A stretch of DNA of 18,305 nt, taken from positions 1 to 18,305 of IMG/VR virus record IMGVR_UViG_3300045988_008988. The stretch is one strand, 5' to 3'. Both the position numbers and the translations under genes were made by a program. Shown here in pieces: positions 2,568 to 11,227 of this stretch. Positions within the stretch are counted from its first letter, which is position 1, and every line of letters begins with the position of its first letter. The notes beneath the pieces are model-generated. The model saw only the letters and a list, made by a program, of their open reading frames with translations. It made no database searches and was not told the DNA's origin. The stretch is from a virus.

Positions 2568-3851
2568 CTAGTTGGTGACGTACCGGCGTATTTCCCACCT
2601 GCTCGCCATATTCATCTCACCCGACGCGGTGAACAGATTCGGCCCGTTTCCCGGCCCACCGTGGGATAATGTCTCATCCTTGCTGTCCGCCGTAAACATT
2701 TCCACATGGTCCCATGCCTGCGTATAGGCACCCCAGTCCAGCAACAGCAAGTCGGCGGCGTGAGCCTTGGCGATGGCATCCGACACCGATGTGTCGGAGC
2801 TGCCGCAGACGCGGGTGCCCTTGCTTGCCATCTGGCCTGTCCATGTGCCCACGTCAATACCTAGCACGTCCTGATAGGCACGCCAACACACGCTGGAACA
2901 ATCGCCGTACCCGCTTGACTCGGGGTCTAATCGCCCCGCGCCCTGCGAATAAGCGTATTTGCCGATGCGTGATCGCAGCCATTCCACGACACGTGCCGCG
3001 TCCTCGCTGCTACTGCCGGAACTGGAACCGCCGCCAGTCTGGCCGCCGCCCGGCTTGGTTGATTCGGAAGTCTTGTATACCCATGTCTGTGCGACGCTTT
3101 TTACAAAAATGGCGGTACTGTCCCCGCTATGGTAAATCAAGTTGTCGCCCTGCAATTGTATCCACGCGGTACTCGCGGGTTTCCCGTCGATGCCGGGCCG
3201 GTCGCCTCCCGGCGTGTCGGACGGTTCGGAGGTTTGGCCAAAATCAGGCGGCGCGGACGTGCCATCCCACGATTTCAGTAGATCATACGTGGTCGTATAC
3301 CGATTACGGTACTGGCCTAGCACGCCATCCGCCAAAATCGTGGTGTAAATCAATTCCAGCGTGGCGGTTGCCGAGCATGATGCAAGCACGCGCTGCGCCT
3401 GCGCCGGACTCTGGTGGTAGGCGCAGGCCCACATGATACGCTCTTTTACGTTCCCTGACGGGAAACCATACCCGTCCATAATGGACTGGTAACTATTCCA
3501 ATCCGCCTCCCATTGCGCCTCCTGAAACGCATGGTTTTCGTCGCGTTGCGCCCACGTTTTCCACGCATTACCCTCGGCGGTGGATAGGTAGCGTGCCGTC
3601 CAGTTGATGTCATTCGCCTGCACCTGCTGCGCCAGTGTGGGAGCCGCCGAGGCGAACGTGTTCCACCCGTCCGGGTCGGCGGTGCGCCCTCGTTCCAAGA
3701 GATTGCGGGCGCGAGTGCCGTACCACTGCATCATGCCCACAGTGATGGCGTCAACGTAGTTGCACGCGCTCCAATCGCAATTGCTTTCCACCGTGCCGAT
3801 AACATACATCGCGTATAGTGTTGTATTATCCATGATAATAGTATACCCCAC
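2568..3851 (-). CDS. Tail-associated peptidoglycan hydrolase (phi29 gp13 position): lysozyme/transglycosylase-like N-domain plus NlpC/P60 cysteine peptidase C-domain
   Basis: 427 aa. The N-terminus has IGTVESNCDW (a Glu-Ser catalytic-type motif) in a Trp-rich ~190-aa domain. A Gly/Ser linker (GGGQTGGGSSSGSSS) follows. The C-terminus has GYGDCSSVCWRAY ... DHVEMF ... SHGG, an NlpC/P60-like Cys/His arrangement. It sits between the fibre genes and the ATPase, as gp13 does in phi29. The start may be ATG 3833 rather than GTG 3851. TAG stop. Confidence 0.8.
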   Translation of the reverse strand: MGYTIIMDNTTLYAMYVIGTVESNCDWSACNYVDAITVGMMQWYGTRARNLLERGRTADPDGWNTFASAAPTLAQQVQANDINWTARYLSTAEGNAWKTWAQRDENHAFQEAQWEADWNSYQSIMDGYGFPSGNVKERIMWACAYHQSPAQAQRVLASCSATATLELIYTTILADGVLGQYRNRYTTTYDLLKSWDGTSAPPDFGQTSEPSDTPGGDRPGIDGKPASTAWIQLQGDNLIYHSGDSTAIFVKSVAQTWVYKTSESTKPGGGQTGGGSSSGSSSEDAARVVEWLRSRIGKYAYSQGAGRLDPESSGYGDCSSVCWRAYQDVLGIDVGTWTGQMASKGTRVCGSSDTSVSDAIAKAHAADLLLLDWGAYTQAWDHVEMFTADSKDETLSHGGPGNGPNLFTASGEMNMASRWEIRRYVTN

Positions 3852-3895
3852 GGCGCGGAACCGTGTGATATATGTTATGGGCTATGCCTCACGCC

Positions 3896-3973
3896 CTAAT
3901 GTAATGGTGCGCCGTCCATATCCCAATACCGGCCTTGAGTCTGTCTAATCCAATCATCAAAAGTAATAGCCAT
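3896..3973 (-). CDS. Possible leaderless 25-codon small ORF in the hydrolase leader
   Basis: ATG 3973 lies exactly 6 nt after the TGCTATAAT box, with no SD. It would encode MAITFDDWIRQTQGRYWDMDGAPLH. The only support is this geometry, which the portal and ATPase starts share. Confidence 0.2.
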   Translation of the reverse strand: MAITFDDWIRQTQGRYWDMDGAPLH

Positions 3974-3998
3974 GCCGCCATTATAGCAGCATGGCTAT
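3966..3998 (-). terminator. Hairpin after the fibre gene with an extended -10 box in its loop
   Basis: Perfect 10-bp stem (3966-3975 ATAGCCATGC with 3989-3998 GCATGGCTAT) and a 13-nt loop. On the minus strand it is followed by UACUUUUGAUGAUU. The loop contains TGCTATAAT (3980-3988). Confidence 0.55.
3980..3988 (-). promoter_or_regulatory. Extended -10 promoter box TGCTATAAT(GG)
   Basis: Exact TGnTATAAT on the coding strand within the 163-nt gap between the fibre and hydrolase genes. Confidence 0.45.
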
Positions 3999-4014
3999 CG
4001 CTTAAAATAGTCCG

Positions 4015-5949
4015 TCAGCTCTCATAAAGATAGCCGTCAGTAGGGCGTACTCTGATTTTCCACACGCTCTTGAAATTGCGTGCAAGACGGACGAACAGGC
4101 GATACTTATCGGTATCCGGTAATGAGACGCCCTTATTTTTGCCCGTAGTCACATCACCCGACTGCCCATTGGAGTACGCCCAAATGATTCGCGCATGGTC
4201 GCGGTCAAGTACAAAGCTTGCATGAACTCCCACCGACTTATCATTTGGTACGGACGGGGATACTGCGGGGGTACTATCGAATGCCACCGTTGTCACATTG
4301 TCTTGATAAAAACCGCCGAACGTGGCGCCATTACGTCGGACGCCGGCGATAATGCCAACCTGTCCAGCCGTTGCCACGTCATTGAACTGACCGATAGGGG
4401 TTGACTCCTTCACTGCGATCACCGCAATGTTTTTCGTCTCACCATTTTCGCCAATCTGAACTCGGGACTCGAAACCCTCAAGGTCGATACTGACCGGCAG
4501 CGTCACCGTACCGCATTCAACCAATTCCACCAACATCTGAGAATCTGCGTCACCGAGCTGGAAAAGGCCGTCCGGAGCGAGATACGAGCTTTTCGCTCTA
4601 ACCGCTTCCGATATTTCCTGTGATACCGTGCCGCCTTGTGGGGCATAGTTCGGGCGCATGAAAACGTTCTGTCCAGTACTGAACGGCGTAAAGTTGCGCT
4701 CCAACTGCCCACTAGCGTAATCCGGCCAATTGGAGGTAATGCCATCAACTCCAAGCGCGGTGACTCGCTCATATGCCACGGGGTCATTAATAAGCCACGG
4801 ATTAATCTTGACGCCAGCCGTGTGCGCGGCGCTGACCATCGAAGAGGTGAGTTTATTTTCACGCGGATTGCCGCAGAAAATACCGGCATTCTTCATATCG
4901 GTCCAAGAGTGCGGCATGGCGTCTACATCCCATGTCCATGAGACGTATTTTACGCCCCCTCGCACGGCGCGGACGCACTGCTCCCAGCTGAACGAAGTCA
5001 ATTCGTGGATTGCGGTGGCACTATACTTTCGCAGTAGTTTCAGCATTGCGTCCGTAGTTTCGTTGGTCAATGACTTGATTTCAAAATCGACGGGACTATC
5101 CCCCACGGCCTGTAGCACCTGTTCCATGCTCACCGGCTTGCCGGTGTTGCCACCATGCACTTTAGCTTTAACCTCGCGACTCATAAAGTCCTTGTAGGTG
5201 ATGGAGGATACGTTAGCGGCCGTTCCCGTCATGGTGCGGGCAGTGGAAGTGTCATGAAGAATGACCGGCACGCCGTCCGACGTGAGTTGCACGTCGATTT
5301 CAGGGATATACCCATGCCGCACTGCCCACATAATCCCCTCCATGGTGTTTTCGGGAAAACGGTACGACCCGCGGTGCGCATGGATAATAAAGTGAGAGTC
5401 AAGCTTACTGTCCACACGAGCGTCCGCAAGCTCGTCCACCTTGGCGGCGGTGTTGTCCAGTTTGGTTTTTTGCGCCGTGGCGTCAGTGGTTGATCCTGCT
5501 CCAAGTGCGGTGAGAATTGTCTTATTGTTGTCGGCCTTACCTATGGCGGTCATTGCGTCCGCTCCCGCCTTATCCCATTTGGTCTTCGAGGCGGTGGCGT
5601 TCGCCTTGTTGTCGGCTCCCAACGCGGCGAGAATCGCCGTGTTGGAATCGGCTTTATTTGCCGCTGCTGTTGCGGCGGCGGTTGCGGCAGCGGCGGCAGA
5701 GATTGATTTATCCCACTTGGTCTTTGCGGCGGTGGCGGAGTCGACCGTGTTGTCTCCAAGCAGCGCTTTGACTACTTCCTCATCGTGCGCTTCGCGCGAC
5801 TCGACACCTTCGATGCGGTTAAGGTGCTTTTCGAGCGTATCATCAATGGTGTGCATGGAGCCGTTGTAGCCGTCCCTTAAATCGGCCGGGTCATTGTCGC
5901 CATACAGATTAAGCCCGTAATTGTCGGTTTTGCTGTATACGGTAGCCAT
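4015..5949 (-). CDS. Tail fibre or appendage protein with a glycerophosphodiester phosphodiesterase (GDPD) domain
   Basis: 644 aa. It has an N-terminal fibre anchor motif (NYGLNLYGDNDPADLRDGYNGSMHTIDDTL) and three Ala-rich repeats carrying KTKWDK/KTKLD. A classic GDPD signature follows (IIHAHRGSYRFPENTMEGIMWAV..GYIPEIDVQLTSDGVPVILHD). The ~215-aa C-terminal domain is of unknown fold. AAGGA SD 7 nt before the ATG. Confidence 0.85.
   Translation of the reverse strand: MATVYSKTDNYGLNLYGDNDPADLRDGYNGSMHTIDDTLEKHLNRIEGVESREAHDEEVVKALLGDNTVDSATAAKTKWDKSISAAAAATAAATAAANKADSNTAILAALGADNKANATASKTKWDKAGADAMTAIGKADNNKTILTALGAGSTTDATAQKTKLDNTAAKVDELADARVDSKLDSHFIIHAHRGSYRFPENTMEGIMWAVRHGYIPEIDVQLTSDGVPVILHDTSTARTMTGTAANVSSITYKDFMSREVKAKVHGGNTGKPVSMEQVLQAVGDSPVDFEIKSLTNETTDAMLKLLRKYSATAIHELTSFSWEQCVRAVRGGVKYVSWTWDVDAMPHSWTDMKNAGIFCGNPRENKLTSSMVSAAHTAGVKINPWLINDPVAYERVTALGVDGITSNWPDYASGQLERNFTPFSTGQNVFMRPNYAPQGGTVSQEISEAVRAKSSYLAPDGLFQLGDADSQMLVELVECGTVTLPVSIDLEGFESRVQIGENGETKNIAVIAVKESTPIGQFNDVATAGQVGIIAGVRRNGATFGGFYQDNVTTVAFDSTPAVSPSVPNDKSVGVHASFVLDRDHARIIWAYSNGQSGDVTTGKNKGVSLPDTDKYRLFVRLARNFKSVWKIRVRPTDGYLYES
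5440..5766 (-). repeat. Three imperfect tandem repeats of ~35-45 codons inside the fibre gene
   Basis: Protein units ..LLGDNTVDSATAAKTKWDK.., ..LGADNKANATASKTKWDK.. and ..LGAGSTTDATAQKTKLD... They are visible at the DNA level as recurring tatcccayttggtctt..ggcggtggcg blocks near 5455, 5575 and 5710. Confidence 0.7.
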
Positions 5950-5952
5950 TGT

Positions 5953-6144
5953 CTAGTCCTTTTTTTCTCGAATTTGAGTATTGAGCTGGTTTAGAATCTG
6001 ATCTATCATGCGCATGGCTCTGTTGAACCCGTCGCGCATGTCCATCGGTGTCGCGTCATTGTAAAGCGGTAGTCCAAAATGTCCCGTCACACCGTATGCG
6101 GCTGAGTCCACTGGCGTGGTCTGCTGTCCGTCTGGCATGTCCAT
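5953..6144 (-). CDS. Short protein (63 aa) consisting mainly of a tail-fibre N-terminal anchor motif
   Basis: Contains HFGLPLYNDATPMDMRDGFNRAMRMIDQIL, paralogous to the N-termini of the two flanking ORFs. ATG 6144 overlaps the upstream TGA (TGATG) and follows a GGGAGAG SD. TAG stop. Confidence 0.6.
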   Translation of the reverse strand: MDMPDGQQTTPVDSAAYGVTGHFGLPLYNDATPMDMRDGFNRAMRMIDQILNQLNTQIREKKD

Positions 6145-6497
6145 CACTCTCCCGAAGCAGTGGTGGAAACGAACGGCAAGCCCTCCGCAGTGACCTTCGT
6201 ATCGTTAAGGTTTCTGACGGTATACTGTCCGCCACCGGTGGCCGGCACGCGGTTAAGGAAGTGATTAAGCGCGGTACCGAGCGCATTGGCGTTAGCTGCG
6301 CTCAATCCGAGAGCGGTGGCGAACGCGCTCAATCCCTCCGGCAGTGCCTCCGGTGTCGGGATGGCGTCAATCCTGTCCGACTGAGTTTTCAATGTCGTGT
6401 CGAGAATGTCCATCGAACGATTGTACGAACCTTCAAGATTCGGCACGTCAGTCGCGCTATATTTCTCCAAATTGTAATTCGGCGTTTTCTGCGTCAT
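6144..6497 (-). CDS. Short tail-fibre-like protein (117 aa) with the N-terminal anchor motif
   Basis: NYNLEKYSATDVPNLEGSYNRSMDILDTTL at the N-terminus. Strong AAGGAGA SD before ATG 6497. Confidence 0.7.
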   Translation of the reverse strand: MTQKTPNYNLEKYSATDVPNLEGSYNRSMDILDTTLKTQSDRIDAIPTPEALPEGLSAFATALGLSAANANALGTALNHFLNRVPATGGGQYTVRNLNDTKVTAEGLPFVSTTASGE

Positions 6498-6514
6498 TTG
6501 TCTTTCTCCTTATA

Positions 6515-7105
6515 TTACTGAGCGGTTTTCATAAAATGGTTGACCACGACGCCATTGGCGAGATTTTCCACCGTTAGCGGGTTGACGGGTTCGCCGTCAT
6601 CCACGTGCGCGTCGCGTGGCGTGATGCGCGGCTCGTTGTTGTGGAAAATGGTCTTGTTGCCGAGTACGGCGAACTCAAGGCATGAGTGCGCTGAGGCCAT
6701 CGGCACAGACAATTGCGCCATTTGGTTGACGCGTGCGCCGAAAACGGCCAATTCGCGGTACATATTACGCATTGCGTCAACGCTATTAACGTATCGTCCT
6801 TGCGTTACGTCATAAATATCATTGGTGATCTCGAGCTTGCCGAGCTTGCTTATAATATCCTCAAGCTGCACGTCAACCGACGCAAGATGCTCGTTGATTT
6901 CGGAGATTTCCACATCTGTCTTGTCGTATTCAGACTTCACCCATTCTTTCACCTTATCTACATATGTCTGCAAAGCGTCAAGATTATGGCGCAAGCATTC
7001 AATTAACTGTAATGTGGTCAATCCGTCACGATAGGTGAACGGAACAGATGTAGGCACCCCGTCGAACAGGCGTTGCCGTGGAACCAGTGCATTAATGTCA
7101 CTCAT
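6515..7105 (-). CDS. Hypothetical structural protein, tail or neck associated by position
   Basis: 196 aa counted from ATG 7105 (GGGAG SD 5 nt upstream; the ORF track starts at 7117). It has a central heptad-like helical stretch (LDALQTYVDKVKEWVKSEYDKTDVEISEINEHLASVDVQLEDIISKL). It lies between the lower collar and the fibres. No recognisable motif. Confidence 0.6.
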   Translation of the reverse strand: MSDINALVPRQRLFDGVPTSVPFTYRDGLTTLQLIECLRHNLDALQTYVDKVKEWVKSEYDKTDVEISEINEHLASVDVQLEDIISKLGKLEITNDIYDVTQGRYVNSVDAMRNMYRELAVFGARVNQMAQLSVPMASAHSCLEFAVLGNKTIFHNNEPRITPRDAHVDDGEPVNPLTVENLANGVVVNHFMKTAQ

Positions 7106-7107
7106 GA

Positions 7108-7902
7108 TTACTCCCATTCTTCGTAGTTATGGCAGTTACCGAATATTGTATCATACGATCCCCATACCTGCATGAAACACGGCTCTAGGCTGCGCACGAT
7201 TTCCATGTCCACGTTGATAATCGCCTGACGGTACTCTTGAATCAGGCTCATGGCGCTCTGGCTGCGCCCTGTCACGTGGCTCTTGCCCTTGGCGTTGCTT
7301 GAATCATGCTGGTAGTCGGTCGCGCTTTGCGCCGTGGTGTGGCTGGTCGAATCCTGCGAACTGGACGCGGTGCCGGAGCTGTCCGCTTGCGACTCGTTCG
7401 CGTGCGAGGCGTAGCGTGCGAAGTCGCCCACAACGCCGGTTTGCGGCACGTCACTGTCAAAACTCTTCGACGTGGTGGTGCTGGAATTATCCGACTTGCT
7501 ATTGCTGGAGCTGGTCGAATCCTGCATACTGGACGCTTTGCCCGACGACTGGGATTCGCTGCCGCTCTCGCTATCCGTCGTCATGTCCATGGAATCCAAC
7601 GGGTTGTATTCGATGTCCAACGTCTGATAGCGTTCATTGAAATAGGGCATGATTTCCGCCATGGTCATTCCCAGATAGAAAACGAATTGCTGGGCGGTTT
7701 CCTGTCCGATTTCCCGAAGCGCGTAATGGCGGATGATTTTCTCGTTCAACTCGGCGCGATGGTCTTCATCGTAAATCGGATAATAGTTGGCGCTGAGATG
7801 CAGCTTGTCGTCGGTATCATATCCGAATGCAATGAGATTGCCGAGGGTTTCGGTGTACTCGCCGGGCGTCGCCATCGCATAGGCGCTAAAATCCTGTGTC
7901 AC
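7108..7902 (-). CDS. Lower collar protein (phi29 gp11 type) with a Ser/Thr-rich insertion
   Basis: The N-terminal YPIYDEDHRAELNEKIIRHYALREIGQETAQQFVFYLGMTMAEIMPYFNERY matches the conserved lower-collar signature of small podoviruses as I recall it. GTG start with a GGAGG SD, overlapping the portal stop (GTGA). Directly downstream of the portal. Confidence 0.75.
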   Translation of the reverse strand: MTQDFSAYAMATPGEYTETLGNLIAFGYDTDDKLHLSANYYPIYDEDHRAELNEKIIRHYALREIGQETAQQFVFYLGMTMAEIMPYFNERYQTLDIEYNPLDSMDMTTDSESGSESQSSGKASSMQDSTSSSNSKSDNSSTTTSKSFDSDVPQTGVVGDFARYASHANESQADSSGTASSSQDSTSHTTAQSATDYQHDSSNAKGKSHVTGRSQSAMSLIQEYRQAIINVDMEIVRSLEPCFMQVWGSYDTIFGNCHNYEEWE

Positions 7903-8849
7903 AATACGCCTCCAATACCAGCGTCGTATGATGCGGGCATGTCGATATCCGCAGTGCCGCTTGCGCTAGAGTCAAGCGCGTTGGGCACTCCGGCACTTTG
8001 CACGTCCGCGTACTCTACCCACACGTTTAGTTGCGGCCACAGTCGGTTGATCTCCGTTGCCGCCGCCTGCCGCGCCTTAAGGAAACTCAATCGAAACACG
8101 TCCGTTTTCTCGTTGGCCTGCGCCACCTCGTCGGATATCAGTCTTTCCTTTTTTTCCGTGCCGGACGATTGAATGCCAAGATATCCCAGCACCTCGTTAG
8201 TGACCTGCGCCTTCTGCTGAATGAACTTGTCCAGCAGGTAAGGCGTAGTGTTGGGCCACGGTTGGAACATCGAACCGGGGTCAAGTGAATCATATCCGAT
8301 GATATAATCCTGACCGTCCTGACGCTGCTGGAGCATGTTCTGCACGGTGAGTTTTGTGCGCGGGTCGGCTGTGATGATGGTTGGCAGTTTCAGGCTCTCC
8401 AAATTCACATCATACGCTTTGTCGATATCTGCAAGGCGTCGCGCGTACTGCCATAATGTCGGCTTGAATCCGACGCGCATTCGATTGTCCCAAATTGGAA
8501 TGCATTCCGAGCCTGCTTTGAGTTGCCTATAGTGGTAGTTGACGCCTACCGGCTCGAACATAGTGGGATTATTGTACACATTCAGCCGACCTTGATAGCC
8601 CGCCTGAGTCACAAGGAACCTGCCGATACGCTTATCCTCGAAAAACAACGCGCACCCGTATTCGCACAGACATATTTCCAGCCAACGCTCATCCACAGTG
8701 GGCGGTAATCCGCGCCAGCTGAAACGGTTCAATGCGAGTTCCGTCAGTAAATGAAGATACATGTCATCAAGCGTGGCAGCGCGTGTTTTCGCGTAATTGC
8801 CGCGTGGATGCAACGCGCCGCCGACTCGATTCTTTTTAGACCTACTCAT
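7899..8849 (-). CDS. Portal (upper collar/connector) protein, phi29 gp10 type
   Basis: 316 aa (phi29 gp10 is about 309). GIQSSGTEKKERLISDEVAQANEKTD..FLKARQAAATEINRLW parallels the recalled gp10 segment [40 protein letters not shown]. The basic N-terminus MSRSKKNR resembles gp10 MARKRSN. Confidence 0.9.
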   Translation of the reverse strand: MSRSKKNRVGGALHPRGNYAKTRAATLDDMYLHLLTELALNRFSWRGLPPTVDERWLEICLCEYGCALFFEDKRIGRFLVTQAGYQGRLNVYNNPTMFEPVGVNYHYRQLKAGSECIPIWDNRMRVGFKPTLWQYARRLADIDKAYDVNLESLKLPTIITADPRTKLTVQNMLQQRQDGQDYIIGYDSLDPGSMFQPWPNTTPYLLDKFIQQKAQVTNEVLGYLGIQSSGTEKKERLISDEVAQANEKTDVFRLSFLKARQAAATEINRLWPQLNVWVEYADVQSAGVPNALDSSASGTADIDMPASYDAGIGGVL

Positions 8850-8855
8850 ATTGCC

Positions 8856-8864
8856 ATTATATCA
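8856..8864 (-). promoter_or_regulatory. Extended -10 box TGATATAAT(GG), 6 nt upstream of the portal ATG
   Basis: Exact TGnTATAAT. Its TGA is the tail-knob stop codon. No SD lies between the box and ATG 8849. Confidence 0.45.
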
Positions 8865-11171
8865 CTCGTAGCCAATGCCAGGCAGTGGCTCATTGTCCGC
8901 CCAATCGGTCACGCCGATATCCTCCGGTCTGCTCCATACGGTAACGCCTCTCTCGAACATGCCCTTAATGGTCAGCCGTGCCTGTTCGGGCAGTGTACCT
9001 TTAATATAGCATTCCTGCATCTGCCAGTACGAGAATTTCTCCATGCATTGCAGACTTGCGGGCGGGGTGACGAACCGTTGGACAAAATACCCGAAGCGCA
9101 GCATGAATTCGCCCACCGAACGCAACGCGCTGGGGGCGCACGTGCGGAAACGAACCAACACGCCCATAATACCGTTAGCGAGGTTGAACGAGTCGCCGCC
9201 CGCCGAACCGCTCGTAGTCGGCGGGGTCATCTGCATTTGCTGGACTTGAGCGTTAATTCCAGCTATCGAGTTCTCATAGTCTCCTTCGGCAAAGCGCGTG
9301 GCCAGTCGATAGTTCTGACCAGCCATCAAAGCGCTAGACGTGCCCTGAATCTGCTGGGCACGTTGCGCGTAAGTGTTCGCCTGCGAGGTTTGCGCCGCAT
9401 TGGTTGCCACACTGTTGGCAGTGTTCGCCGCCGCCGTGTCGTTGGCGATGTCACGGCTGGCGTACAGTCCCTTGTTGGCGATGTCGTTCTGTACGATGCC
9501 GCCGATGGCGCCAGCGGCGCCGCCAATCAGTCCGGCCACGCTCCCTGACGCCAATGCGTTCCCCGCATTAGAAATCAGCCCCCACGTGGTTTGCGCGTTG
9601 TTTTGTGATACGTTCAGGTTGATCATGGCGTTAGTGTTCGCCTGTCCGATGGCCAACGACCGGTTAAGTGAGTTGGCTGCAATGGCGTTAAGCGCGTTCC
9701 GGTTCGTAATACCCAGTTGGGTCATCTCTTGCTGAGTGCGAATCGCCGTGCCGGCCTGAGATAATGCGTTGGCTGCGCTCATGGTCGCTTTTTGCTGCGC
9801 CCAACCGGCAGACTGCTCCGCATATGCGCGAGCGTATGTGCTGTTTGCCATAGCAAGCGAAGCCCCGTTGTTCACCACCATGAACTGCGGGAAGTTTGTG
9901 ATACCAAAACTCACGTTAAGCATTTCTCCGCCGTCAATCGGCAGCCCGGTGCCGTTCCCGGACGGGGAGGAAACGGCAGACGCGCCTCCCGTATTGTAGT
10001 TCACCGGGTAAAAGTTCAGGCGCGGAGACGGTGGCGCGTAGTTCCACGTTTCGCGGATAACCAAGTCATTAGACTGGATATCTTCGGGCCGATAGATGAT
10101 ATTCGAGCCATTCAGGCACGAGCATTCCACGACGCTATACGGGTAGCACTGTAGTTTTTTTAGATTATGGTACCGTTTGGGGATATTAAAGTTATTGCGA
10201 AAATTCTTGATAGAGACAATATCGTCATACCTGTTATCGCTTTTAGCCTCCCATATAAACGTATACACATGCCCCTTAACCACACCGGCCGCGTCGTTGC
10301 CAAAAAATTGCGTTACCTCTCTGCCGGCGTCAGCTATATAGTCGGCGCTAATTTTGGGGATGGCGTAAATCGCCGTAATGCCCTGAGTGACCCACGGGTA
10401 CGAACCCCCTGCCTGCATAACGCGCGTAAAATCGTCGGCGGTGTCAAAATAATAAATCCCCGCGCCATTGGATTGATTCTCGAATTGTGAGCCTTGCGCG
10501 GTTTTCAGCGACGGTTTTTCAGTACTACCGCCCGACACCACAAGATCGGTTGTAGCCACGACAATGACACCATAATCCAAGGTTGGTGAGTTAAACCCGG
10601 GCTGCGCGGGCTTGCTGGACACAAGCGCCGTATATGACTGTGAGGTAACGACGGTTTCCGCGCCGGTGTCCAGTCCCTCCGGCAGTGCAAGCGTGGTACG
10701 CCCGTAATCGTCCCATTGGCGTTCATTGGCAATGCCGATATGGCCGCGCGTCACATAGCAGCTACCAAAGCTTACGTCAAATTGGAAACTCTGCCATACG
10801 TCCAGCATAAGCGTGAGCTGTGTGGTGTGCGCGTTAATGTATTCCACGGATTCGATGAAATAATACCAAGCGCGTGGCGATCCCAGTTCGGGGTAATCGT
10901 TGACGGCGACGAGGTAATTATAGTTTGATGCTTGGTTAAATGGCATGTCGATACGAACGGGGGCGCCGAAAATATGCATGGTGGCCGGACGGCATTCCAC
11001 TCCGTCCAGTTTGTCGAACCATTCTCGCTGCGTTTCACGTGAAACAAACCGTACGATATCACGGTATGAAGCATCCCACGGCACTCGGCAGAGTTTCAAC
11101 GTCGTGTTTGGCGTCCATTCCGCCCACGAAAAATTCGACTCCACATAAGGATTCACGTCGTCAATCATCAT
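8862..11171 (-). CDS. Tail knob (distal tube) protein, phi29 gp9 type, with an enlarged internal loop
   Basis: YNYLVAVNDYPELGSPRAWYYFIESVEYINAHTTQLTLMLDVWQSFQFDVSF parallels the recalled gp9 segment [48 protein letters not shown]. The C-terminus FSYWQMQECYIKG..GVTVW parallels FNYVQTKDCFISG..GITLW. The start is probably ATG 11171 or 11168, after GGAGGACA; the ORF track starts at 11201. Confidence 0.88.
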   Translation of the reverse strand: MMIDDVNPYVESNFSWAEWTPNTTLKLCRVPWDASYRDIVRFVSRETQREWFDKLDGVECRPATMHIFGAPVRIDMPFNQASNYNYLVAVNDYPELGSPRAWYYFIESVEYINAHTTQLTLMLDVWQSFQFDVSFGSCYVTRGHIGIANERQWDDYGRTTLALPEGLDTGAETVVTSQSYTALVSSKPAQPGFNSPTLDYGVIVVATTDLVVSGGSTEKPSLKTAQGSQFENQSNGAGIYYFDTADDFTRVMQAGGSYPWVTQGITAIYAIPKISADYIADAGREVTQFFGNDAAGVVKGHVYTFIWEAKSDNRYDDIVSIKNFRNNFNIPKRYHNLKKLQCYPYSVVECSCLNGSNIIYRPEDIQSNDLVIRETWNYAPPSPRLNFYPVNYNTGGASAVSSPSGNGTGLPIDGGEMLNVSFGITNFPQFMVVNNGASLAMANSTYARAYAEQSAGWAQQKATMSAANALSQAGTAIRTQQEMTQLGITNRNALNAIAANSLNRSLAIGQANTNAMINLNVSQNNAQTTWGLISNAGNALASGSVAGLIGGAAGAIGGIVQNDIANKGLYASRDIANDTAAANTANSVATNAAQTSQANTYAQRAQQIQGTSSALMAGQNYRLATRFAEGDYENSIAGINAQVQQMQMTPPTTSGSAGGDSFNLANGIMGVLVRFRTCAPSALRSVGEFMLRFGYFVQRFVTPPASLQCMEKFSYWQMQECYIKGTLPEQARLTIKGMFERGVTVWSRPEDIGVTDWADNEPLPGIGYE

Positions 11172-11186
11172 TGTCCTCCGGTATGG

Positions 11187-11227
11187 CAAGGCCCGGAGCA
11201 ATCACGTGGATTACGCTCCGGGCCTTG
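11187..11227 (-). promoter_or_regulatory. GC-rich 13-bp hairpin just upstream of the tail-knob RBS
   Basis: CAAGGCCCGGAGC (11187-11199) pairs perfectly with GCTCCGGGCCTTG (11215-11227) around a 15-nt loop. It shares CGTGATTGCT and the downstream GCCAT..ACC-RBS layout with the hairpin at 13395-13422. Confidence 0.6.

Follow-up and report, generated by a model that had tools for sequence, protein, structure and literature searches.

Among the closest described parallels to the locus considered here are the tail fibres of phages P68 and Andhra, in which a conserved N-terminal loop and coiled coil bind the portal and collar. The corresponding parts are a connector (residues 1-45) and a shoulder (46-80) in P68 gp17, and an N-terminal loop of 36-38 residues followed by a coiled coil in Andhra gp15, while Andhra has, in addition, an extra protein that serves as anchor for its receptor-binding proteins (RBPs) (PMC6795507, PMC9710869). 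The loop is conserved together with the portal and collar to which it binds, with 17 identical residues between both phages (PMC6795507, PMC9710869). In the present work, we analyzed a viral sequence of 18,305 nt from IMG/VR (record IMGVR_UViG_3300045988_008988; "the window" refers to this whole stretch), in which three consecutive open reading frames (ORFs), two of them short and the third encoding a tail fibre with a GDPD domain, begin with one common module, referred to here as the anchor. The three ORFs and the elements next to them are as follows (aa, amino acids):

6144..6497, minus strand: s117, 117 aa, with the anchor at residues 5-43 (6369-6485), a helical middle and a conserved C-terminal part of 29 aa; deposited as DAS37079.1
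5953..6147, minus strand: the stub, or s64, 64 aa from a GTG start and 63 aa from the ATG at 6144, with the anchor at residues 21-59 in the 64-aa numbering (5971-6087); the 63-aa form is deposited as DAS37078.1
5950..5955, minus strand: the TAG-ACA junction, across which the stub and the fibre ATG at 5949 are in one frame
4015..5949, minus strand: the tail fibre, 644 aa, with the anchor at residues 8-46 (5812-5928), a stem, the GDPD domain and a C-terminal domain
3965..3999, minus strand: a terminator-like hairpin of 16 pairs with a T-rich tail, 16 nt past the fibre stop

The coordinates and order of these ORFs are those given in an earlier note on this DNA. Our analysis shows that all three share one widespread N-terminal module. 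Both short ORFs are genuine genes under strong purifying selection, and the anchors vary together with a neighboring protein, p200, that may serve as their adaptor on the collar.

The likeness to P68 gp17 and Andhra gp15 lies in the arrangement, as in those phages a trimeric fibre of swappable body is mounted on a phi29-like tail by a short N-terminal loop and the coiled coil that follows it, and as the loop is common to fibres with unrelated bodies, like the anchor here. A loop and coiled coil may be present in the anchor proteins, too: in the low-confidence AlphaFold2 (AF2) model of s117 (pLDDT 58), residues 1-26 have no regular structure and a helix spans 27-45, and heptads after the ID of the motif can be recognized by eye. 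However, anchor profiles compared with the PDB showed no detectable sequence similarity to P68 or Andhra, and these phages have one fibre gene with a connector, as opposed to the two or three anchor genes found here. Moreover, their connector shares the conservation of the portal and collar; here, the portal and collar are constant and the anchors vary.

The sharing of one N-terminal attachment module by several RBPs and the swapping of distal bodies are well-known themes. Phages SP6 and K1-5 (gp37), G7C (gp66 and gp63.1) and Klebsiella phages of the KP32 type carry several RBPs on one tail via short conserved N-terminal modules, and in these systems an anchor-only protein docks spikes that lack a tail-binding domain. 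The gp37 protein of SP6/K1-5 is small and consists essentially of the attachment module. The stub is likewise a small attachment-module protein, but RBPs without an attachment module are not found here, the long fibre having its own full anchor, and these phage families and their sequences are unrelated to the window. In the literature on the phages of the present group, P68 and Andhra, we found no description of anchor-only mini-proteins encoded beside a fibre with its own anchor.

The anchor module and its distribution

The common N-terminal motif reported in the earlier note is above chance by BLASTP against the fibre N-terminus, which the 117-aa ORF matches at E=1e-8 (39% over 51 aa) and the 64-aa ORF at E=8e-10 (43% over 40 aa). 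The two short ORFs gave no significant match to each other by BLASTP (E=4.2), and their kinship is therefore transitive, via the fibre. For profile comparison, relatives were collected by a connector scan of viral contigs, which yielded 80 loci with 92-98% connector identity, most of them 17-19 kb, and plus-strand ORFs were called in all 80. An anchor profile iterated on 147 segments from 75 of the 81 sequences (the 80 related loci and the window) scored the three ORFs at E-values from 4e-15 to 6e-17 (3.6e-16 for s117 and 5.8e-17 for s64), such that the motif stands at the profile level as well, where the earlier note had named a lack of significance as a sign against it. The module comprises about 40 residues, namely a loop with Y-x-L-x2-Y/F...D, followed by a helix that begins at YN-x2-M-x2-ID.

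When 1.84 billion cluster representatives were searched, the anchor was matched by 5,760 proteins at E<=1e-3, including 2,189 at E<=1e-10. Among the best 150 hits listed, the best match fell at, or within about 10 residues of, the N-terminus in 149, the sole exception being a duplicated protein, P0241, which has a second anchor copy at residue 1. The bodies of the hits examined were very diverse (collagen-like, YadA-like, SGNH-like and small beta heads). One homologue is found on a 30.8-kb contig that carries an SPP1-type Dit protein (SPP1_Dit) and is not phi29-like, and another on a phi29-like contig of 37% GC. The anchor is common but uncharacterised and, given its presence on the SPP1_Dit contig, not specific to phi29-type collars. 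Searches of Pfam, PHROGs and the PDB gave nothing meaningful for the single short proteins or for two anchor profiles, and profiles A1 and A4 retrieved from all PDB chains just a chance match to coronavirus HR1 (E=0.2-0.5). A profile search of a word-indexed protein database returned only proteins shorter than 110 aa, probably owing to a retrieval bias, and was not used as evidence. Both short proteins of the window had already been deposited, in a metagenome-assembled record, as "hypothetical protein" (DAS37078.1 and DAS37079.1).

Several single homologues are of interest in their own right. Two begin with MKLKLNIQRFA or MIKLNIQRFA directly ahead of the conserved STNKT, a start that we take to resemble the Prp-protease leader of Firmicutes phage and L27 proteins; if the leader is of the Prp type, the anchor may need a free, exactly placed N-terminus. 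The P0241 protein (positions 5001-5504 of L086, the 37% GC contig mentioned above) carries two tandem anchors and was considered as a natural fusion of the kind that read-through would produce. This was rejected, as the tandem is an exact 141-nt duplication and a neighboring gene (3376-3933) is also internally duplicated. The L086 contig nonetheless shows that the anchor family occurs in low-GC phi29-like phages; the protein upstream of P0241 gave no significant match to a hidden Markov model (HMM) of the p200 N-terminus.

Two or three consecutive anchor genes are the norm in this phage group. Counting the window and the 74 related loci with anchor hits, two anchor genes in a row were found in 60 of 75, three in six and one in nine, some of the last being truncated contigs. 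The usual layout after the p200 gene is a short protein (mostly 137-143 aa, range 88-354) and then a long fibre (295-658 aa). The triple of the window (117, 61-64 and about 644 aa) recurs in the close relatives L005, L015, L021 and L024, while L028 and L056 have a stub of 54-56 aa plus a fibre. The same order of collar, p200-like protein, short anchor protein(s) and fibre is found in the cultured phages BP1 (PQ571273), BD811P1 (OP172658) and BadAztec1 (NC_048858), all three of which have the same 55-aa stub, with 55-58% anchor identity to s64. In BP1, gp7 (55 aa) precedes gp6, and in BD811P1, 00007 (55 aa) precedes 00006; these two phages differ from the window in having no 117-aa gene. In BadAztec1, the capsid protein of which is only about 41% identical to that of the window, gp08 (79 aa), gp07 (55 aa) and gp06 (449 aa) all carry the motif. 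The short genes of the three phages are all deposited as "hypothetical protein" and we found no discussion of them in the literature, nor did a literature search reveal virion proteomics of the BD811P, BP1 or BadAztec phages.

Conservation of the short genes and their junction with the fibre

Among five close genomes, s117 has a dN of 0.090 and a dS of 0.757 (dN/dS 0.12), the stub a dN of 0.031 and a dS of 0.293 (dN/dS 0.10) and the fibre an overall dN/dS of 0.08. The s117 protein was matched by 271 proteins at E<=1e-3, of which the best 120 are 116-118 aa long with 83-92% identity, many of them on 17-19-kb contigs; its fixed length is thus seen across at least 120 cluster representatives. The 90% cluster of the stub has 84 members of 60-63 aa, on contigs of about 18 kb. 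With dN/dS values of about 0.1, fixed lengths and a Shine-Dalgarno sequence of their own, both short ORFs are real genes under strong purifying selection. Absence or poor conservation in relatives, which the earlier note had named as a sign against them, is not what was found, as both are conserved across this phage group.

The same note held that only the third ORF has a body. This is right for the stub, which is the module plus a short heptad stretch (beyond the anchor, about 2.5 heptads, or about 20 aa, of coiled-coil-like sequence and nothing else), yet constraint extends along all of s117. It is strongest in the C-terminal 29 residues, where 26 cluster representatives have a mean pairwise identity of 89.6%, and the AF2 model of the protein contains further helices at 53-62 and 67-82 and short C-terminal strands, residues 1-26 having no regular structure. 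In type I loci (one of two anchor types, see below), each short protein is built from the anchor, a spacer and, at its C-terminus, a conserved motif, GLTAxELDSMYKDANGIVRVG. In-frame deletions shorten the spacer, down to a total of 51-53 aa, and larger versions carry globular inserts; as the spacer varies while the ends are kept, both ends matter and the middle can be dispensed with. The motif is present in BadAztec1 gp08, a near-identical homologue of which (P0101) scores E=4e-14. A homology of the s117 C-terminus with this motif, suggested by a likeness seen by eye, is not supported, as the motif HMM does not score s117, and an intermediate-looking protein, P0107, reached only E=0.95 with it. 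In L016, the type I short protein (100 aa, followed by a 124-nt gap) shows an apparent frameshift relative to 139-aa homologues, which points to a sequencing error or to natural inactivation of this copy.

One reading raised in the earlier note is that the short ORFs are remnants, N-terminal pieces without function that stayed behind when cassette exchange displaced fibre genes. The locus is, indeed, a mosaic with breakpoints just past the anchor, and the short anchor proteins of relatives carry many in-frame internal deletions, down to the 51-53 aa mentioned. Decaying remnants should, however, present relaxed selection, variable length and patchy presence, and what we found is a dN/dS of about 0.1 with substantial dS, lengths that are invariant in hundreds of contigs, a C-terminus that is the best conserved part of s117, stub orthologues in distant phages and the same triple layout in the distant BadAztec1. 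We thus consider it highly improbable that the short ORFs are debris.

The relationship between stubs and fibres leads to the same point. With 55-82% identity, the stub anchors of the window, BP1, BD811P1 and L056 group together, and their fibre anchors make up a second group (88-97%), while a stub and the fibre anchor of its own genome share 45-52% in the window, BP1 and BD811 lineages (48% for s64). The stub orthologues, namely BP1 gp7, BD811P1_00007 and the stubs of L028 and L056, have 55-61% anchor identity to s64, and orthologous stubs thus occur in phages with capsid proteins just 37-41% identical. Stubs and fibre anchors are thus old paralogues, both of them maintained, and not recent debris.

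These comparisons also bear on the possibility that the stub, and perhaps s117, is part of a hetero-oligomer or acts as an assembly factor. The stub would co-assemble with the N-terminal helix of the fibre in a mixed coiled coil or helical bundle and thereby start trimerisation, determine how many full-length chains enter a stem or keep the anchor covered until it docks, and may or may not stay in the virion. Stub and fibre keep, by eye, the same heptad pattern after the anchor (ID-x2-L-x3-L-x2-I), the stub always lies directly upstream of the fibre, usually with an ATGA overlap, and the BadAztec1 stub anchor is closest to that of its own fibre (55%). In addition, a 53-aa stub, P0066, has a first half like a fibre anchor (KTSNYGLNLYGDNDPADLRDGYN) and a second half like a stub (SMRILDQKIHQLEILVRE), which suggests that stub and fibre have undergone gene conversion or recombination. 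On the other hand, the stubs of the window, BP1 and BD811 are orthologous and only 45-52% identical to their own fibre anchors, which points to an independent, long-maintained role rather than to mimicry of a fibre chain, and type I genomes make fibres without any 55-aa stub. Furthermore, a stub of 55-64 aa always accompanies the type II anchor, whatever the distal fibre body, and this tracking of the anchor type rather than of the enzymatic body argues against a body-specific chaperone. Taken together, we find such a role in fibre assembly quite unlikely.

The three genes are tightly coupled, as had been noted, with close packing and apparent co-transcription. Shine-Dalgarno-like sequences can be read directly ahead of each gene at a suitable distance (AAGGAG, GGGAGAG and AAGGA, in gene order), that of the fibre being 7 nt upstream of its start. 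The s117 and stub genes overlap by 4 nt with the GTG start or by 1 nt with the ATG at 6144, and a 3-nt spacer lies ahead of the fibre. The TGATG overlap at 6144 is present as described, but this ATG is AAG in the relative L005, whereas an ATG at 6138 is kept in five of the five close genomes; the stub product is therefore probably the 61-aa form that starts there. A hairpin scan of the coding strand across the three-gene cassette found two structures only, a weak stem of 5 pairs within the fibre gene and the 16-pair hairpin at 3999-3965. As this single strong hairpin follows the fibre gene, the three ORFs are probably co-transcribed, and the hairpin closes the transcription unit that holds them. 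It has a TATAAT in its loop and parts the fibre cassette from the gene of a 427-aa tail lysin-like protein.

The junction reads GAC TAG ACA ATG, so that stub and fibre are in frame, and the earlier note had considered that the TAG at 5953-5955 is occasionally read, giving a fibre of about 710 aa with tandem anchors. The in-frame 3-nt spacer is retained in L015, L021 and L024. However, these three of the four close relatives end the stub with TAA, and L005, which has TAG, has a 5-nt spacer that places the fibre out of frame. In L028, L056, BP1, BD811P1 and BadAztec1, the stub and fibre genes overlap out of frame. A leaky stop with an in-frame downstream ORF, as expected of programmed read-through, is thus not conserved. 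Likewise, the fibre has its own AAGGA, no tRNA gene was found in the window, TAG is the ordinary stop of many other anchor genes in the clade, and P0241, the one tandem-anchor protein, is probably an assembly artefact. Read-through is therefore very improbable; if it takes place at all, we consider it an accident of this particular genome.

The p200 protein and the exchange of tail modules

Between the lower collar gene and s117 lies the gene for p200, which belongs to the following set of features:

7899-8849, minus strand: connector/portal (PF05352), with alleles independent of anchor type
7108-7902, minus strand: lower collar (PHROG and PDB 6qz9), with alleles independent of anchor type
6515..7117, minus strand: p200, 200 aa (or 196), just downstream of the lower collar, with the constant first 46 aa at 6980-7117; candidate adaptor
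5755..6977, minus strand: co-inherited proximal module, comprising p200 from residue 47 to its end, s117, s64 and fibre residues 1-65, swapped as one block

Comparison of this locus across related genomes bears out the cassette exchange proposed in the earlier note, as the locus is a recombination mosaic. By blastn, homology with L016 ends at 5754 and resumes at 6978, leaving a differing block at 5755-6977, and against L026 and L004 the divergent block is 3850-6977, with an identical left breakpoint at 6978. The breakpoints fall at about codon 46 of p200 and about codon 65 of the fibre. Beyond the anchor, fibre residues 99-643 (stem repeats, GDPD and C-terminal domain) are 84% identical to the fibre of L016, the N-terminus of which carries the other anchor type (type I) and which has no stub, while fibre residues 1-113 are 79% identical to BP1 gp6. 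The distal GDPD body is thus exchanged independently of the anchor. The type II anchor, that of the window fibre, is recognized by the signature D-L/M-R-D-G-Y/F-N.

Across the 80 loci, the first ~46 residues of p200 are nearly invariant (97% in residues 21-40; median 89% over residues 1-48), and the remainder drops to 10-20% identity in most loci. The C-terminal part falls into at least two unrelated types, with the same breakpoint against three relatives. When p200 C-termini and anchors were typed independently in 75 loci, 68 were type I for both, seven type II for both and none discordant. The same pairing is found in cultured phages, where the type II p200 C-terminus occurs in BP1 gp8 and BD811P1_08 (40-41% over 157 aa) alongside type II anchors, and the type I C-terminus in BadAztec1 gp09 (32% over 196 aa, E=4e-33) alongside type-I-like anchors. 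Other tail genes do not follow the anchor type. Portal identity is at least 92% in all loci, and the alleles of the lower collar (93-97% vs 69-74%), the tail knob gp9 (8862-11201; ~95%, ~63%, ~56% and 83-91%) and the 427-aa protein p427 (2568-3851; ~94% vs ~38%) assort independently of it. These discrete collar, knob and p427 alleles also assort independently among genomes with portal, capsid and ATPase more than 90% identical, and the tail of this clade thus recombines extensively in modules. In two loci, L074 and L078, the p200 N-terminus is just 65% identical and no anchor-bearing ORF was detected; these may hold a third, different appendage arrangement.

The question is then where the anchors dock. 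According to one explanation, related to the competing collar plugs of the earlier note, the three proteins form homotrimers that bind the same 12 portal/lower-collar positions via the anchor, stubs and short fibres would dilute or alternate with GDPD fibres (e.g., 6+6, as in the staggered C6 arrangement of Andhra), and p200 would be an unrelated appendage. The fibre loop and coiled coil of P68 and Andhra do bind the portal and collar directly and interlock with their neighbors, the fibres of Andhra occupy two positions that are not equivalent, the stub corresponds to the "connector plus shoulder" of such fibres, and the tight packing of the genes (the 4-nt or 1-nt overlap and the 3-nt spacer) suggests coupled expression. 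However, the anchors of types I and II agree in just 18-48% of their core residues, although the portals and collars of the same genomes are 93-98% identical, in contrast to the portal-binding loop of P68 and Andhra with its 17 identical residues. The anchors track the p200 C-terminus, the part that is constant together with the portal and collar is the p200 N-terminus, and the anchor is also found on the siphovirus-type contig. Docking of the anchors on the collar itself is thus not borne out by our comparison, and direct competition for collar sites is unlikely.

Since the anchors vary while the portal, the collar and the p200 N-terminus stay constant, p200 rather than the anchors is the better candidate for the collar-bound component. 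We propose that p200 is bound to the collar and serves as the adaptor for all three proteins, which dock on it as separate appendages, the stub being an occupant or spacer without a body, an arrangement that we judge to stand at about even chances. The invariant first 46 residues would seat p200 on the portal/collar, as the N-terminal loop and coiled coil of P68 and Andhra do, and the anchors would dock on its variable C-terminal part, not on the collar itself. One adaptor would then carry mixed appendages, i.e., the long GDPD fibre, the short 117-aa fibre and the body-less stub, the last of which would occupy or space docking positions. The p200 C-terminus, the short proteins and the fibre anchor would form a co-adapted unit, while the distal body could be swapped freely and host specificity change with it. 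A described counterpart of such an adaptor is the "RBP anchor" of Andhra, gp6, likewise an extra tail protein between stem and fibres that holds the fibres, but gp6, an alpha/beta protein of 403 aa, ends in a lipase-like domain and forms six dimers, whereas p200 has 200 aa, is mostly helical and has no similarity to gp6 that could be detected. In the AF2 model of p200 (pLDDT 56), an N-terminal loop at 1-26 precedes long helices at 27-58 and 64-92, and this weak model is suggestive of the outline of a fibre connector and stem. We found no description of this apparent adaptor role, nor of the three-tier modular boundary, in the literature mentioned above. A likeness seen by eye ("RDG...I-E/D..L") had raised the possibility that p200 is a fourth, distant copy of the anchor; this was rejected (hhalign probability 1.8%).

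Several points weigh against the adaptor proposal and should be considered when referring to it. The association of p200 and anchor could be mere physical linkage of adjacent genes, and the 75 loci of the count are not phylogenetically independent. The role of p200 is suggested by comparative genomics, p200 showing no detectable homology to the anchors (by hhalign, at the 1.8% given above) or to solved structures and no match in Pfam or the PDB, and the AF2 monomer models of s117 and p200 are of low confidence (pLDDT 58 and 56). The s117 anchor fits neither type I nor type II cleanly, and the nine loci with a single anchor gene (some truncated) show that short proteins are not universally required. 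A further step from the adaptor proposal, namely that the stub, and perhaps s117, is a stoichiometric virion part that occupies, alongside the fibre, the docking sites of a symmetric hub of p200, such that an encoded spacer fixes the number and arrangement of GDPD fibres, and that the ~40-residue anchor is a major docking domain of Gram-positive phage fibres, is possible but doubtful.

The phage, its GDPD fibre and implications

All long ORFs of the window are on the minus strand, and its length compares with the 17-19 kb of its relatives. Pfam searches identified the connector/portal (7899-8849; PF05352, E=1.8e-41), the gp16 packaging ATPase (PF05894, E=2.8e-43), a phi29-type capsid protein with Ig-like domains (PF25622, E=4e-86) and matches to PF20934/PF16838. 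A family B DNA polymerase of the protein-primed type (PF03175, E=1e-32), a phi29-type single-stranded DNA-binding protein (SSB; PF17427, E=2e-14) and genes for a gp9 tail knob, an amidase and a holin were also identified. The lower collar matches the PHROG adaptor Ad4/lower collar and the phi29 proximal tail tube connector (PDB 6qz9, E=2e-13); its residues ~105-215 are a long Ser/Thr/Asp-rich low-complexity insertion, where phi29 and P68 form the tube hairpin. With the phi29-type polymerase, SSB, capsid, knob, connector, ATPase and collar all present, and a size within the ~18-20 kb of protein-primed podophages of this kind, the window is a near-complete ~18-kb genome of a phi29-like podophage, the closest cultured relatives of which infect Bifidobacterium. 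In a megablast search of 50,697 phage records, the whole window found no DNA-level match, and kinship with cultured phages is visible at the protein level only. The capsid protein is 37-42% identical to those of the Bifidobacterium phages BadAztec/BadAargau, BD811P1-3 and BP1, and the fibre shares 90% identity with BP1 gp6 over its first 82 residues; based on these two likenesses, a Bifidobacterium host is likely.

The assignment of the fibre as a GDPD, made in the earlier note, is secure, with PF03009 at E=9.7e-23 over residues 192-410 (4720-5376; 82 bits against a cut-off of 23.6). PDB matches to GDPDs reach E=4e-11 and include 9euf_B, an 848-aa GP-PDE protein deposited as ORF58 (E=4.7e-10). 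The HRG, ENT, E-x-D and HD motifs can be read directly in residues 190-245, so that the catalytic motifs are intact, and the fibre may hydrolyse glycerol-phosphate polymers of the teichoic-acid type. The enzyme is flanked by two further parts:

5455-5725, minus strand: Ala-rich stem, residues ~75-165, with three repeats of ~45 aa that end in KTKWDK or KTKLDN
4018-4719, minus strand: C-terminal domain, residues 411-644, the remainder after the GDPD, of a fold without assignment

The GC-rich alanine codons of the stem make a 20-pair pseudo-hairpin on the opposite strand (5657-5700). As compared with the GDPD found here, the fibre body of BP1 is beta-helix/pectate-lyase-like and that of BD811P1 a beta-propeller (PMC12694917).

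In these small phages, host range is set by parts mounted on the tail. Our analysis defines an exchangeable unit, consisting of a constant peptide that would bind the collar (p200 residues 1-46), a co-adapted docking block and a freely swapped distal body. This gives a concrete rule by which Bifidobacterium podophages could be retargeted, few of which are in culture (BP1, BD811P1-3 and the honeybee phages BadAztec/BadAargau). It also helps in annotating thousands of metagenomic fibres, and it flags both a very common fibre N-terminal domain without a structure and conserved "hypothetical proteins" that are likely virion parts. The finding would not overturn current views. If the doubtful reading of a shared p200 hub were true, the anchor, with its 5,760 cluster representatives and no entry in Pfam, PHROG or the PDB, would be a major, structurally uncharacterised docking domain of the fibres of Gram-positive phages.

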